Source of the DNA: Naegleria gruberi
Lineage: Eukaryota
NCBI GenBank assembly: GCA_000004985.1
Contig: GG738921.1
DNA length: 64,000 nucleotides
Strand: one strand, 5' to 3'
This document shows positions 13,368 to 61,380 of this stretch, piece after piece. Below the pieces are notes generated by a model that made no database searches, was not told where the DNA came from, and saw nothing but the letters and a program-made list of their open reading frames with translations. The position numbers and the translations under genes are program-made. The number at the start of each line of letters is the position of its first letter. Position 1 is the first letter of the stretch.

Positions 13368-13693
13368 TTTGAAATAATTTGAGATTCGATTAGAATTAAA
13401 CTATTTAAGATAATTATCTTGGTGGATGTTATATGGAGTTTTGCGCATGTGGAATTATATTGGAATCTATTTGGCATTCAAGAAAAGTGTGTAACGGAGT
13501 TAAATTACAGTGACCATACTTATTGAGTATGAGATACAATGTTCCCATAGCTGAGGATTCGTGTATTAATATATCCATTACTGTTCGTTCTTATTCTCTC
13601 ACTTCTTTTATTAATAAACTACTAGAAATGTACATTTCTATTATTGAACCGATGTGAATGAATAAACAAAGAAATATTTCATAGTGAATGTAT

Positions 13694-13765
13694 TCCCGTG
13701 TAGTCCAATGGCTAGGATACCTGGCTTTCACCCAGGAGGTCCGGGTTCAATTCCCGGCATGGGAG
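13694..13765 (+). tRNA. tRNA-Glu (anticodon UUC), 72 nt.
   Basis: Cloverleaf: acceptor TCCCGTG/CATGGGA (one G-U pair), D arm GTCC-AATGGCTA-GGAT, anticodon stem CCTGG/CCAGG with loop CTTTCAC, T arm CCGGG-TTCAATT-CCCGG, discriminator G. Confidence 0.9.
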
Positions 13766-13840
13766 GATAATTTTACATTTTCAAATGCGGAATAGTTTGG
13801 TTATCATCTCCGGATTTATTTCTGAAACACTGCAAAAAAA

Positions 13841-16716
13841 ATGGCAAACTCCTTTTCTTTCATCTTGTTTGCCATCTTGGTTTTGAATTGGGCCTTGTTA
13901 GCCAATTGTAATTTGACTTTTTCACAACAAACATTCAACACTCTCCTCAACTCAACCCAAACTTCAACTCTATCACTGACAATGTACATGGGAGGTGGAA
14001 CAACCATCAAAAACAGTAACAACAGCACATGTGGAATGTCTGTGGATAATCCATGTACAAACTTTAATCAATTATTATTAACTTTTAATTGGACACTCTT
14101 TAGTCAATTTGAGAATTTCACAAAAGCAACATCGGCAGGTGAAAGAAACGTTCACTTGAAGATACTGATACTTCCAGATGGCAGTATTTTCTGTCCTATC
14201 AATCCAGTTAATTTATCTCCTTCAATGAATTATCATTTAGAATTTACGAAACTAGTCGAATCATCAACAATAACACCCATCTTGACCTGCCTCAACACAC
14301 AAGATGGAAATGGCATTTCCATTCCTNNNNNNNNNNNNNNNNNNNNNNNNNNNNNNNNNNNNNNNNNNNNNNNNNNNNNNNNNNNNNNNNNNNNNNNNNN
14401 NNNNNNNNNNNNNNNNNNNNNNNNNNNNNNNNNNNNNNNNNNNNNNNNNNNNNNNNNNNNNNNNNNNNNNNNNNNNNNNNNNNNNNNNNNNNNNNNNNNN
14501 NNNNNNNNNNNNNNNNNNNNNNNNNNNNNNNNNNNNNNNNNNNNNNNNNNNNNNNNNNNNNNNNNNNNNNNNNNNNNNNNNNNNNNNNNNNNNNNNNNNN
14601 NNNNNNNNNNNNNNNNNNNNNNNNNNNNNNNNNNNNNNNNNNNNNNNNNNNNNNNNNNNNNNNNNNNNNNNNNNNNNNNNNNNNNNNNNNNNNNNNNNNN
14701 NNNNNNNNNNNNNNNNNNNNNNNNNNNNNNNNNNNNNNNNNNNNNNNNNNNNNNNNNNNNNNNNNNNNNNNNNNNNNNNNNNNNNNNNNNNNNNNNNNNN
14801 NNNNNNNNNNNNNNNNNNNNNNNNNNNNNNNNNNNNNNNNNNNNNNNNNNNNNNNNNNNNNNNNNNNNNNNNNNNNNNNNNNNNNNNNNNNNNNNNNNNN
14901 NNNNNNNNNNNNNNNNNNNNNNNNNNNNNNNNNNNNNNNNNNNNNNNNNNNNNNNNNNNNNNNNNNNNNNNNNNNNNNNNNNNNNNNNNNNNNNNNNNNN
15001 NNNNNNNNNNNNNNNNNNNNNNNNNNNNNNNNNNNNNNNNNNNNNNNNNNNNNNNNNNNNNNNNNNNNNNNNNNNNNNNNNNNNNNNNNNNNNNNNNNNN
15101 NNNNNNNNNNNNNNNNNNNNNNNNNNNNNNNNNNNNNNNNNNNNNNNNNNNNNNNNNNNNNNNNNNNNNNNNNNNNNNNNNNNNNNNNNNNNNNNNNNNN
15201 NNNNNNNNNNNNNNNNNNNNNNNNNNNNNNNNNNNNNNNNNNNNNNNNNNNNNNNNNNNNNNNNNNNNNNNNNNNNNNNNNNNNNNNNNNNNNNNNNNNN
15301 NNNNNNNNNNNNNNNNNNNNNNNNNNNNNNNNNNNNNNNNNNNNNNNNNNNNNNNNNNNNNNNNNNNNNNNNNNNNNNNNNNNNNNNNNNNNNNNNNNNN
15401 NNNNNNNNNNNNNNNNNNNNNNNNNNNNNNNNNNNNNNNNNNNNNNNNNNNNNNNNNNNNNNNNNNNNNNNNNNNNNNNNNNNNNNNNNNNNNNNNNNNN
15501 NNNNNNNNNNNNNNNNNNNNTTGGAATAGCATTAGGTTTTGGAATATTCTTTGTGTGGAAAATTGTAAAGAAATTGAGAAAACTGAAAAGTAAGGAGAAG
15601 GCAGAGAAACAAATTGAAGAAAAACTTTTAGACAAGCGACTTATTTTCAATATGAATGACGAGGAGGATGAATATTATGAGGGCTCCACACCAAATATTG
15701 AAAGAAGCAAATCATCTTATGGGAAAGTATCTGAAAAGGAGTTAGTTTCTTCATTGATTGACAGTGAAAAGAAGAAATCAAAACATTCTTTCAGTTTTTC
15801 ATCCTCTTACATTATTCCAATTGAAGACATATCAATTATTAAAAAGATTGGAGAAGGAGGCGCAGCTAATGTATATTATGGTACATGGACCAATATTAAA
15901 GTGGCTATCAAGTCACTCAAGATTGACAGTTTTGATGATGATTTTGAGAATGAAGCAGCCATCCTCAGTTTAATTAGACATCCAAACATTCTGACATTCT
16001 ATGGAGTATGTTTGACTGATAAGAGTCGATATATTGTGACTGAATATATGGAAAATGGCTCTCTAGACAGGTATATATTTTTGAATAAGAACAGAGCATT
16101 GAATATTGACCTATTCAAATCAAATATTGGAATTTTGTGTGGAATTGTGGATGGTATGCAATATTTACACTCTCTTAAACCTTCAATTATTCACAGAGAT
16201 TTGAAATCGAGTAATATATTGTTGGACGAAAGAAATACTCCAAAAGTTTCTGATTTTGGTCTTGTTAAAGTATTGGGAAACAATACAATCAGTCAAATTA
16301 CAAAAGGAATTGGTACAGTGTATTATTTAGCTCCAGAAACATTCATTGCTGAACATCAAATTGAAAATAAGGAAGAGGCAACCAAGTTGGACATTTACAG
16401 TTTTGCAATAATCATGTGGGAATTATTCTTTCGAATGAGTCCTTATCATCATGTGAAAAATCCATTCAAAGTGCCTCAAATGGTTGTCAATGGAGAAAGA
16501 CCTCAAATTCCCTTCAATATTGAAAATGATACGGAAATCAAAGAATGGCTTTCAATTCAAGCATTGGAAATTTCATCGTCTGACAATTCTTTCATTAATG
16601 GTATTAAGAAATACTTCTCACTCATTCTCCAATGTTGGAATCAAAATCCATTACAAAGACCTACATTCCTGACAATTAGAAGAGAATTGGATGAGATTTA
16701 CAATCTAATCGGTTGA
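13841..16716 (+). CDS. Receptor-like TKL-group protein kinase. The gene spans the assembly gap. Domain order: signal peptide, N-glycosylated ectodomain, [gap], TM helix, Ser/Thr/Tyr kinase.
   Basis: 5' ORF MANSFSFILFAILVLNWALLANC... with many NxS/T sites runs into the N run at 14327. Immediately after the gap, the same strand reads LGIALGFGIFFVWKIVKKLRKLK (a TM helix plus basic stop-transfer). Then a complete kinase follows: GEGGAANVYYG, VAIK, HRDLKSSNILL, DFG, APE. It ends at 16716. Confidence 0.65.
14327..15520. other. Assembly gap (1194 N).
   Basis: Run of N. ORFs 14264..15532, 14292..15650 and 14304..15593 in the track are artefacts of translating N. Confidence 1.
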
Positions 16717-36511: not shown

Positions 36512-37492
36512 ATGGGTAATGTCATTCCTGTTAACACTCTCTTCTTGGGTATCGATGGAGCTGGTAAAGTAAGTAACATGAAATCTTTACATTTCGTCTA
36601 ATGTGTAAACTAATGTTTAAACTAATGTGTGTAAACTAAACTTTAGACCACCATCATCAACACTGGTATGAACAAATTCAAACAATTAAAACAAGAGCAA
36701 ATTGATGCTATACAACCAACTTTGGGACATGATTCAAAGAGATTTACAGTGGAAGGAGTTGAATTTATTTCATGGGATGTAAGTATTTGAAGAATTGAAC
36801 AAGTTTTCTAATAGTAGAAATTGTCATTGATTGAATGGTGTTGTTGTTTTGTTCATTGACTGCTCCAATAACAATAATAATAACAAATGTCATGTTGACG
36901 TGTAAAAAACTCGAAATCTTTGGATGATTTGAAAAAATATTAAAAAATTCGTGATGATATGAAAAATGGATTCGATTCTTGGCCATGACATGAATTTTTC
37001 TCACTATTTCTCACCACCATTGACAATACCACAACAACACATTGAACAATTCAATCACGACCACTTTGTTGCTTCCTATAGTTCCCTGGCAAGGAACAAC
37101 TTCGTTCCACATGGACTTCCTACTATAAACATGCTCAAGTCATTGTCTTTGTTGTTGACAGCTCTGATAGTGATGAACGTTTAGAAGAAGTTAAGGAAAT
37201 TCTCCACTCCATCATTCAAAATGTCCAATTACGTGAATGTTTGTTGTTGATTTTGGGTAACAAACAAGATTTGAATTCCACTAGAAATTTGGATAAATTG
37301 AAGGATACTCTCGGATTAGGAGGTAATTTAAGTGGATTACGTGATCGTACTTGGAAGATACTTACTTGTACTGCCAAAACTGGAGATGGTTTGGAAGATG
37401 CTTTCAAATGGTTGTCAACTGAAACAATGAAGGCCTATAAAAAGAGAGAAAGCAAGAAGAAGGAAGAAAAGAAGGAAGAAACTAAAAAATAA
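36512..37492 (+). CDS. ARF-like (ARL) small GTPase. Three exons: join(36512..36568, 36647..36778, 37082..37492).
   Basis: MGNVIP (a Gly2 myristoylation candidate). G1 GIDGAGKTT, G4 NKQD, G5 CTAKTG. The switch II motif reads WD|FPGKEQLR instead of WDvGGQ, so the catalytic Gln is absent. Intron 1 is 78 nt. Intron 2 is about 303 nt, which is unusually long for this window. Confidence 0.7.
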
Positions 37493-37880: not shown

Positions 37881-38988
37881 ATGTCTGCTCAATCCATTAG
37901 CTTTTCCAAGTATACAAAATTCGACAATCACTACAGAAAACAATACGTCGAATCGATCAAGACCCAAAATGAAGAGATGAGCAAGAAATTAAATCATCCA
38001 ATGGAATGGTATTGCTCCGAGAAGGTTCATGGTTGTAATTTGAGCTTTATTGTTGATAGAGTAAGGCAATCAGAGTATAAAGTAGAGGTTGCTAATCGTT
38101 CATGTGTTCTTTCACAATCATCAATGAGCTTTTATCCAAAAACAATTGAACAGTTGGAGAAAAAGTTTGAGTGGTGAATTGAATGAACAATTGAAATTGA
38201 AGAGTGTTCAAATTTATGGTGAATTATTTGGTGGATTATTCCCAAATAAGAAACCTTCAGATGCTAAGGCAATTCAAAGTGGAATTCACTATTGTCCACA
38301 TCATGATTTTTATGCTTTTGATGTTCTTCTCGGATTTGAGAATGGAAAACAATCTTGGGCTGTTTTTAACAATGTTGATCCATTGTTGGATGAGTGTGGA
38401 TTCAAAGTGAGAGCTCAACCATTGTTTAAGGGAACTTTGGACGAATGTTTGGAGTTTGATGTTAAATTTAACACTAAATTACCAGAAACTTTCTATCCAG
38501 AAATTGTAAAGGAAAGAAATGCTTCCTGGAAGGATTTGGATAATATTTGTGAAGGTGTTGTCATCAAACCAACCAAGTACAATATCTTTGTGGAAACTGA
38601 AAGAGCTGTAATCAAGAAGAAGAATGAAAAATTCTTGGAAACTGAAGCTAGTGATAAACCACAACAACCAGTGAAAAAGGAAAAGGGTGACTCTGAAGAG
38701 CTAGTTCAGGTATGGAATGAACTCTCACGATACATTACCTCCAATCGTTTGGATAATGTTCTCTCAAAGATTGGAAACCTCACCAAGAGTAACATGTTCC
38801 CAGTTATGAAGGAATTCTCAAATGATGCCCTCGAAGAATTTAAATTAGATTTGGAACGTGGTGCTTTGGAAAATTGTAAACCAGTTTCTTCACTTTCAAG
38901 TGAAGATCAGAAAAAGCTCACTAAAAAGATCAATGATGCTTGTATGGTTTTAATTAAGGAACAATTAAACAAACCATCATCAGAATAA
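37881..38988 (+). CDS. T4 Rnl2-family (ATP-dependent) RNA ligase. The reading frame is interrupted once near 38150-38177.
   Basis: MSAQSISFSKYTKFDNHYRKQYVESI...MEWYCSEKVHGCNLSF aligns with T4 Rnl2 [20 protein letters not shown]...GEWVAREKIHGTNFSL. Motif I Lys is at 38022-38024. Downstream VQIYGELFGG...IHYCPHHDFYAFDV aligns with YQVFGEFAGPGIQK..DYCDKDFYVFDI. C-terminal NRLDNVLSKIGNLTKSNMFPVMKEF aligns with NRVNNVISKIGEIGPKDFGKVMGL. Frame 0 ends ...EKKFEW* at 38177. Frame 1 opens at 38128 and carries the rest. The shift lies at or near the run GGAGAAAAAG (38156-38165). Confidence 0.75.
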
Positions 38989-39098
38989 AGTGCAAGTTGA
39001 CTATTTCGAATAAAAGTGGTGTTACTGAAATAATTTACAATTTTTTGTTTTTTGAATACAAATTGCAATTTATTGATTATTTACCATACAATAACCAT

Positions 39099-39386
39099 TC
39101 AATAATTACGGTGTTTACCCTCATAGGTATGATAAACCTCTACTCTGTCTTGTTGTGGTACAGTATCGCTTCTTTTTTGATGGTCTGGAAAGTTTTGTAG
39201 GTGTTGTCTTAAATTGCCATGAATGTTACCAGTGGCAGCACACTTATGTCCTTGTGGGGTTTGACTACTAATGGGGTTATTTTGAGATTTAATTTGACTA
39301 CTTGTTTGGGAGTTATTTTGAGATTTAATTTGGCTACTTGTTTGGGAGTTATTTTGGCGACCAGTTTGGGATTTATGTTGAGTCAT
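39099..39386 (-). CDS. Small S/Q/N-rich protein with a 12-aa tandem repeat (NNSQTSSQIKSQ x about 3), hypothetical.
   Basis: The ORF overlaps a 36-nt DNA tandem repeat. Low complexity. Confidence 0.3.
   Translation of the reverse strand: MTQHKSQTGRQNNSQTSSQIKSQNNSQTSSQIKSQNNPISSQTPQGHKCAATGNIHGNLRQHLQNFPDHQKRSDTVPQQDRVEVYHTYEGKHRNY
39281..39376. repeat. Tandem repeat: a 36-nt unit (GGGAGTTATTTTGAGATTTAATTTGGCTACTTGTTT) in about 2.7 copies.
   Basis: Copies begin at 39281, 39317 and 39353 (the third is partial). Two substitutions between copies 1 and 2. Confidence 0.7.
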
Positions 39387-39624
39387 TTTGTTTCTGGCTT
39401 GTTTTATTTATTTTAACATACCACGTTTAACATCAAAACTTTTATTATAAAGAACTTTTGAGCCAAAAGGGAGACTTCATTTTTGGACAATTTCTTAATT
39501 TATGAAATTACTAGCTCAAGAGAAGCCCAAGACGAGTCAAGGATTTATTTGGTGTTGGTGAGCCTTTAAATTGAACCAATGACAATAAGGATATTGTTAA
39601 GAAATTTTAAAAAATCAGAAAAAA

Positions 39625-60404: not shown

Positions 60405-61380
60405 ATGCCACAACATGTCCATCATCACTCCCTCTCACCTTCAAGACCAGTCGTCGTTATTGATAATGGCTCGGGAATGATTAAGGTAGGATTTTCCTGT
60501 AGTGATTCTCCCAGAGCCATATTTCCAACAATAGTAGGGCATAAAAAAGAGTCATCAGATCAAAAGAAGGAAACAACCAACAATGATCTCAATAGTATCG
60601 GATCATCATTTGTTGGAGAGATGGCAATAGCTCATCGAGAATTATTGGACATAAAAAGTCCCATGGAAAATGGAATAATTTCAAATTTTGATGATATGGA
60701 AAAGATTTGTTATCATCTCTATCCGGAGTTCTTGTCACAGAACCAAGTTAGAATCCAAAGTTGGTGAGAGAAAAAACAACAGAAATATTTTTTGAAAAGT
60801 TTAAGGCCAATCAGTGATGGGACTTTGTTCGAGTGCCAGATCAGATGGTGTTGTTTTGGATGCTGGTTATACGAAATCATATGCTGTTCCAATTCTTGAA
60901 GGAATTGCATTGCCACATGCCATTCAGGTGATGNNNNNNNNNNNNNNNNNNNNNNNNNNNNNNNNNNNNNNNNNNNNNNNNNNTTCACAAAGAGGAGGTT
61001 TGAATTGTCAGATGGAAGCAAAGTGAATTTTGGAGAGGAATTAATGTCATGTCCAGAAGCTCTATTCAACCCACAGTTAATCAAAGAAGGAGAAGGAATT
61101 CACAAGATTCTCGTCAATTCCATTTTCAATTCAAATGCAGAAATCACAAGACAACTCTTTGCCAATATTGTCCTTGTCGGTGTCTCAACAATGTTTGAAG
61201 GTTTTCCCAATCATTGAATTGGCTCCTCTCTCTGTAAAAGTGAAAATCCTTTCATTCCCCGAAAGAAAACTCTTCCTGGTTTGGAGGTTCAATTACGAGC
61301 TCTCTTTCAGAATTCCACAATATGGCCATTCACAAAAAGGAATATGAAGAAGTTGGACCTAGAATTGTAATGTAGAAATG
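60405..61380 (+). pseudogene. Actin-family (actin/Arp-like) gene with multiple frame disruptions and a 50-N gap. A probable pseudogene or badly assembled locus.
   Basis: The N-terminus VVIDNGSGMIKVGFSCSDSPRAIFPTIVG...ENGIISNFDDMEKICYHLY resembles actin [28 protein letters not shown]...EHGIVTNWDDMEKIWHH. Downstream actin-homologous segments lie in successively different frames: REKTTEIFFEKFKA; then SSARSDGVVLDAGYTKSYAVPILEGIALPHAIQVM; then gap 60934..60983; then CPEALFNPQ...NIVLVGVSTMFEGFP; then [20 protein letters not shown]; then [34 protein letters not shown]. That is 4 or more frameshifts plus in-frame stops. Confidence 0.55.
60934..60983. other. Assembly gap (50 N).
   Basis: N run inside the actin-like locus. 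Confidence 1.

Follow-up and report, generated by a model that had tools for sequence, protein, structure and literature searches.

Closest described RNA ligases

The closest described system to the gene reported here is T4 RNA ligase 2 (Rnl2, gp24.1; PDB 2HVQ, 2HVR and 1S68), which shares with it a two-domain layout of an adenylyltransferase domain with motifs I, Ia, III, IIIa, IV and V and a T4_Rnl2_C domain. The biochemistry of T4 Rnl2 comprises lysyl-AMP, AppRNA and nick sealing in duplex RNA (cited in PMC4408790); of its residues, Arg55 makes contact with the 5'-phosphate, and the 3'-OH strand requires Phe65 (PMC4797309). The kinetoplastid editing ligases REL1 and REL2 (PDB 1XDN) have the Rnl2-type adenylyltransferase fold in common with the Naegleria protein. 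NgrRnl, the characterised Rnl5 of Naegleria gruberi (PDB 5COT), belongs to another family and has an N-terminal domain in place of the C-terminal one (PMC4408790). According to Unciuleac and Shuman (RNA 2015, PMC4408790) N. gruberi has five Rnl2-family members, seven Rnl1-type ligases, one Rnl5 (NgrRnl) and two RtcB proteins, and the physiological substrates of the Naegleria Rnl2 and Rnl5 enzymes are not known.

Identity of the locus

The window analysed here is the whole stretch of 64,000 nt from N. gruberi contig GG738921.1 (assembly GCA_000004985.1), with a GC content of 32.5%. When positions 37881-38074 are spliced to 38154-38988 the translation (P0001) shows zero differences from XP_002669886.1 (EFC37142.1, UniProt D2W189), a protein of 342 aa deposited as 'RNA ligase [Naegleria gruberi]'. 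It was the top match in a search of 5.8 billion proteins, followed by Naegleria-like metagenome proteins and then by N. lovaniensis, Willaertia magna and Acrasis kona; phage and bacterial entries for 'Rnl2 family RNA ligase' came last, with about 33% identity. The host is thus N. gruberi (Discoba, Heterolobosea) and not an amoebozoan or dictyostelid as the first-pass annotation had supposed. That annotation had also considered a cellular Rnl2 unusual. However, XP_002669886.1 is among the five Rnl2 members listed in PMC4408790, so a cellular Rnl2 at this locus is established knowledge and the gene is an ordinary, already catalogued one. Two points are usefully corrected: what breaks the reading frame is a deletion of 68 bp, and the protein model on deposit, which conceals the break behind a 79-nt intron, is wrong around it.

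The features of the gene are as follows.

37881-38177, + strand: ORF1, ATG-started, frame 0, 98 codons plus TGA; 5' part of the Rnl2 gene
within 37881-38177, + strand: N-terminal FSKYTKFDNHY block
38022-38024, + strand: AAG codon of Lys48 in motif I, EKVHGCN
38075-38153, + strand: 79-nt GT..AG 'intron' of the public model
38097-38099 and 38130-38132, + strand: Arg73 and Phe84 of motif Ia, in the 5' part
38128-38988, + strand: ORF2, frame +1, open from 38128 to the TAA at 38986-38988
38160-38164, + strand: A5 run, encoding E-K-K of the (E/Q)(K/N)KFG block
38166-38169, + strand: TTTG deletion junction, the one surviving microhomology copy
end of ORF1, + strand: last two codons and stop, GAG TGG TGA, out-of-frame readthrough past the deletion junction
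38170-38988, + strand: 3' part of the ligase gene, frame +1
38215-38235, + strand: motif III, YGELFGG
38305-38325, + strand: motif IIIa, DFYAFDV
38551-38571, + strand: motif IV, EGVVIKP
38608-38625, + strand: motif V, VIKKKN
about 38686-38946, + strand: T4_Rnl2_C domain, including NRLDNV at 38743-38760

The change of frame noted in the first-pass annotation was confirmed. The two ORFs overlap, and the frame switches from 0 to +1 within 50 nt (38128-38177). The sequence that encodes the two-domain protein is therefore not a single uninterrupted one, due to the frame break and the 68-nt gap. The conceptual protein that joins the two frames has 368 aa.

Membership of the Rnl2 family

The assignment to the T4 Rnl2 family made at first pass holds up well. 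The Pfam profile RNA_ligase (PF09414) matches the conceptual protein with an E-value of 5.7e-20, far over the curated cutoff, and T4_Rnl2_C (PF18043) matches with 2.6e-27 (95.4 bits compared to a cutoff of 27), covering 80 of its 82 positions. In a phmmer search the best PDB sequence match was T4 Rnl2 (2HVQ; E-value 1.3e-17), with residues 8-321 aligned, including the previously quoted blocks KYTKFDNHY, EKVHGCN, YGELFGG, DFYAFDV and NRLDNVLSKIG. The next match of the repaired protein was the T. brucei editing ligase REL1 with 1.3e-7, ten orders of magnitude behind T4 Rnl2. The REL1 match is confined to the N-terminal domain, whereas the T4-type C-domain of the Naegleria protein lies outside it. 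REL-type ligases have no T4 C-domain; the window gene carries T4_Rnl2_C and its closest similarity is to T4 Rnl2, so it is no nearer relative of the kinetoplastid editing ligases.

The NCBIfam model RNA_lig_RNL2 (TIGR02307) yielded an E-value of 1e-45 and 156.8 bits, below its equivalog cutoff of 197.15, and the protein of an intact relative (L002, see below) likewise stayed under the cutoff with 140 bits. These scores indicate a divergent eukaryotic Rnl2 branch, not one equivalent to the enzymes of phages and bacteria at equivalog level. For TIGR02306, which bears on the comparison to NgrRnl, the score was 31.6 bits compared to a cutoff of 151.

Judged by an alignment of 65 sequences, the two ORFs retain every residue that is invariant in the family. 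The motif I lysine is Lys48, as proposed earlier, and is invariant in this alignment; K48, G51 and N53 are invariant or near-invariant. Also present are R73, F84, the G and E of YGELFGG, the D of DFYAFDV, the E and G of EGVVIKP, the K-K-N of VIKKKN and the invariant Arg of NRLDNV. The sequence evidence supports Lys48 as the predicted adenylylation site, and it supports membership of the Rnl2 family with the signature C-terminal domain included.

The structural comparison used the AlphaFold model (pLDDT 91.9) of P0002, a close, strain-level orthologue. Its best Foldseek matches in the PDB were 2hvr (1.8e-18), 1s68 and 2hvq, with E-values ranging from 1.8e-18 to 1e-16, so that T4 Rnl2 is the top structural match of the modelled orthologue as well as the top sequence match of the window gene. 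The Foldseek identity between T4 Rnl2 and P0002 is about 23%. REL1 reached 4.7e-16 with TM-scores of 0.62/0.76, and NgrRnl was a far weaker match with about 1e-5. The window gene differs from T4 Rnl2 in being eukaryotic, chromosomal and frame-broken, and the helix between motifs Ia and III is longer in the intact Naegleria versions than in T4 Rnl2.

By homology with T4 Rnl2, the intact enzyme would react with ATP to form Lys48-AMP. The AMP would then be moved to the 5'-phosphate at a nick in duplex RNA (AppRNA), and attack by the 3'-OH would seal the 3'-OH/5'-PO4 nick, with the C-domain presumably aiding nick recognition.

Related copies of the gene

We compared the window to three related contigs. 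L001, from an ENA metagenome, encodes P0002 and is a strain-level relative of the window (dS 0.039). L002 encodes P0003, is about 87% identical at the DNA level and has an intact ORF of 400 codons. The third copy, L003, encodes P0004 and shares its metagenome of origin with L002. With tblastx we found no synteny between L002 or L003 and the window, and the flanks of L003 are unrelated to those of L002 and the window. Strict orthology of L002 and L003 is therefore unproven, and their orthology is taken from sequence similarity alone. The intact relatives have 391-400 aa, in contrast to the window locus, which lacks 68 nt of coding sequence.

Two of these copies carry lesions of their own, which could also be assembly errors as L001 and L003 are metagenome contigs. 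In L001 codon 333 (corresponding to window positions 38809-38811) is changed from AAG to TAG, which truncates T4_Rnl2_C and is independent of what happened in the window; either a genuine null allele or an error of the metagenome assembly could account for it. L003 (positions 648-1879) has lost its start codon and shows a 10-nt deletion in motif V and a 1-nt deletion near the 3' end. The ratio of lineage-specific nonsynonymous to synonymous changes is 34:29 in L003 compared to 4:7 in L002. L003 is a decayed copy.

On L004 (N. lovaniensis PYSW02000017.1, 6001-8731) the homologue, with 44% identity, and a gene for an Rnl1-type ligase (PF09511) are arranged head-to-tail, and about 1.5 kb upstream there is a transposase-like gene of the DDE_Tnp_1_7 type. 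An Rnl1 neighbour of this kind is missing from the window. The pathogen N. fowleri was missing among the 123 homologues from the protein search, though N. gruberi, N. lovaniensis, Willaertia and Acrasis were present; the ligase paralogue may be absent from N. fowleri or may have been missed by the word filter.

The 68-nt deletion

The three-way DNA alignment displays a clean gap of 68 columns that occurs in the window only and is flanked by TTTG. The window equals L001 base for base through GGAGAAAAAG-TTTG and then resumes at AGTGGTGAATTG, so that 68 nt are missing between G38165 and A38170, with TTTG at 38166-38169 common to both sides of the gap. In L001 the 68 nt are flanked by a GTTTG…ATTTG pair, one copy of which survives in the window, where the sequence across the junction reads AAAAAGTTTGAGTGG. 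L001 has the identical A5 run and keeps frame 0 beyond it (…EKKFGPMS…), reading …EQLEKKFGPMSIQLFESIERVLPKWAELDLSGELNEQ…, and L002 and L003 read …NKFG(A/S)GS(I/V)QLF… in the same frame. As 68 equals 2 modulo 3, the downstream part of the gene stands in frame +1.

The missing 68 nt encode GPMSIQLFESIERVLPKWAELD, which corresponds to residues 97-118 of the orthologue P0002. In the AlphaFold model of P0002 this segment forms the C-terminal two-thirds of a predicted helix (residues 86-117) between motifs Ia and III. It is coding in L001, L002 and L003, with a dN/dS of 0.13 between L001 and L002, and it is also present in the homologues of N. lovaniensis, Willaertia and Acrasis. We considered whether the 68 nt of the orthologues might be an intron lost from the window and rejected this, because the segment is conserved as protein across genera. 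Furthermore, no GT..AG placement gives the window junction, as the window keeps G38165.

We estimate that a microhomology of at least 4 nt would occur by chance at about 2% of random junctions. The TTTG microhomology fits slippage or microhomology-mediated joining.

Alternative explanations of the frame break

The first-pass annotation had attributed the break to a single frame shift at the A5 run and offered three readings, namely a pseudogene, a sequencing error in GGAGAAAAAG or recoding. Deleting one A does restore an open frame. However, L001 has the identical A5 and runs on in frame 0 as EKKFGPMSIQLF…, L002 and L003 read (E/Q)(K/N)KFG in the same frame, and the window matches its relatives up to AAG TTTG and resumes 68 nt later; to regard the 68 nt as a lineage-specific insertion is contradicted by their presence across Naegleria, Willaertia and Acrasis. 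As the run has the same length in L001 and the relatives read this block in frame 0, it is correct and the lesion is the 68-nt deletion, so a one-base insertion or length error in the A5 run is refuted. Recoding or a cryptic rescue yielding a full-length ligase is highly improbable as well. It could proceed through a +1 ribosomal shift at UGG-UGA-A (38172-38178) or through a short splice such as 38165-38204. A +1 shift at the TGA would yield …EKKFEW-ELNEQLKLKSVQIYGELFGG, the rescued product would resemble T4 Rnl2 in the length of the linker from motif Ia to motif III, the repaired protein aligns end to end with T4 Rnl2 without the lost helix segment, and some short GT..AG pairs restore the frame while leaving motif Ia untouched. 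However, the candidate introns are only 31-52 nt long and cut conserved codons, and the orthologues L001, L002 and L003 are in one continuous frame, so that neither the shift site nor a two-frame layout is conserved among orthologues as it is in recoding of the RF2 or antizyme type. We know of no programmed +1 frameshifting reported in Heterolobosea. Recoding is thus unneeded and has no comparative support. It is also very unlikely that the public model is correct, i.e. that the intron 38075-38153 is spliced and a 342-aa protein made. The GT and AG boundaries exist, no stop interrupts the spliced product ahead of the normal one, and it has been deposited as XP_002669886.1. The claim of the first-pass annotation that no GT-AG intron is possible was formally incorrect, as 67 GT..AG pairs of at least 30 nt restore an open frame and the public model uses one of them. 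Such fits are therefore cheap, and since the other 66 pairs restore the frame equally well the fit is no evidence for the model. Excision of 38075-38153 costs the protein residues 65-91, a loss of 26 complete conserved codons and a fraction of the 27th, among them strand 65-71 and the motif Ia loop with the near-invariant Arg73 and Phe84, whose counterparts in T4 Rnl2 are the substrate-contacting Arg55 and Phe65. The segment is in-frame and stop-free in all relatives; between the window and L002 its dN/dS is 0.12 and 9 of 15 substitutions fall at third positions. Together with the 68-nt loss, the product would be without about 49 residues of the adenylyltransferase core. The coding-type evolution and the motif Ia content of this segment indicate that the intron is an annotation patch. 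No frame-restoring GT..AG combination is biologically credible, and to this extent the earlier claim stands: no genuine intron explains the break.

The pseudogene is the best supported of the three earlier readings, and it has to be weighed mainly against an artefact of assembly, cloning or consensus building, in which case the true gene of strain NEG-M would be intact, with about 391 codons like L001 minus its stop, and the 68-nt gap would stem from a clone or from building the consensus of a draft scaffold. The deletion rests on one draft consensus, and the window is gapped (1194 N at 14327-15520 and 50 N at 60934-60983). The catalytic residues are all intact and the comparison of window and L001 is still selectively constrained. 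Deletions at short microhomologies also arise in E. coli clones. On the other hand, a clean loss of 68 nt at a 4-nt microhomology is atypical of base-calling or assembly errors and would need to dominate a consensus of multiple reads, the chance expectation of about 2% for such a microhomology would favour real recombination or slippage, and the related copies L001 and L003 also carry disabling lesions. We consider the artefact unlikely, though a good deal less so than the explanations above. We searched for an independent N. gruberi contig with either allele and found none in exact-product look-ups and metagenome scans. The look-ups returned no record for ORF1 (98 aa), ORF2 (280 aa), the neighbouring 645-aa ORF or P0001, a scan of JGI metagenomes with the 21-nt invariant motif I string gave 0 matches, and a protein-guided metagenome scan yielded only bacterial or phage-like loci with 26-31% identity.

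A probable recent null allele

The window gene is probably a redundant paralogue that has recently become a null allele or a pseudogene. It is most likely that the deletion exists in the organism, beyond the assembly, and that the allele is non-functional. The deletion would have arisen at the 4-nt TTTG microhomology, in the way usual for replication slippage or microhomology-mediated end joining, removing about 22 codons of the conserved helix and putting what follows into frame +1. A ribosome starting at the ATG would then meet the TGA at 38175-38177 once 98 residues had been made and would not reach motifs III-V or the C-domain. With four further Rnl2-type ligases in N. gruberi, besides its Rnl1-type, Rnl5 and RtcB enzymes, the loss would be tolerable, and the independent nonsense codon of L001 and the decay of L003 also speak for dispensability. 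The copy may have become fixed as a pseudogene, or it may represent one of the two haplotypes in a heterozygous diploid. Naegleria has been described as a heterozygous diploid (PMC9928731), and the assembly could thus represent the null haplotype.

How recent the loss would be can be judged from the comparison to L001. Between the two sequences we counted 8 synonymous changes, 3 missense changes and 1 nonsense change, which departs from a neutral nonsynonymous to synonymous ratio of 4:1 (binomial P = 4e-4). The gene has therefore been under purifying selection until very recently, which leaves either a very young deletion or one that is not real; the signal is equally expected if the gene is intact and the gap artefactual. 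The survival of every invariant family residue in the window likewise fits a recent loss.

A broader version of the null allele, in which this Rnl2 paralogue undergoes repeated, independent loss across the N. gruberi species complex, is a tentative possibility. Three of the four sampled copies (window, L001 and L003) are disabled by different lesions while the long-term dN/dS is about 0.13. Such a pattern would be in keeping with an RNA-repair ligase that is useful under certain conditions but can be done without in culture or in particular habitats, and null alleles would then segregate in heterozygous diploids. In a further, more exotic variant the deletion allele may still be expressed through the +1 shift at UGG-UGA-A or a cryptic mini-intron.

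If the window gene is a null allele, the count of functional Rnl2 enzymes in strain NEG-M, within an RNA-repair repertoire that is unusually large in N. gruberi, may be four instead of five. XP_002669886.1 (D2W189) as deposited lacks motif Ia and part of the conserved helix and is unfit for expression or modelling; for biochemistry the sequence to use is that of the intact relative L002 with 400 aa. The finding has no bearing on RNA editing and leaves the range of hosts known for Rnl2 enzymes unchanged. Its main value lies in annotation and for anyone cloning the gene.

Genomic neighbourhood

A tblastn search of the window revealed no other ligase gene of Rnl1 or Rnl2 type. Its surroundings consist of genes of an ordinary kind, which encode an Arf GTPase, an ADH-type oxidoreductase and LRR/F-box proteins, so there is no RNA-repair cluster, and nothing links the gene to an editosome or to U-insertion/deletion editing.

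Between the ligase stop and the next ATG lies a segment of about 590 bp (39008-39598), compared to only about 56 intergenic nt in L001. It contains a minus-strand ORF of 95 aa (39099-39386) with a 36-nt tandem repeat (39272-39356). It has no Pfam match and no second copy in the window, and a search for repeats and mobile-element signatures around the gene and in this strain-specific segment gave nothing convincing.

The ligase gene is immediately preceded by that of the Arf-family small GTPase (36668-37492, + strand), which is broken up into a number of short ORFs that are presumably exons; the last of them matches PF00025. The Ns produce two artefacts, namely an apparent GC content of 13.5% at 14-16 kb and 'ORFs' that overlap one another on the two strands of that region. 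A tRNA-Glu gene with anticodon TTC (13693-13766, + strand) closely precedes an ORF that extends into this N gap.
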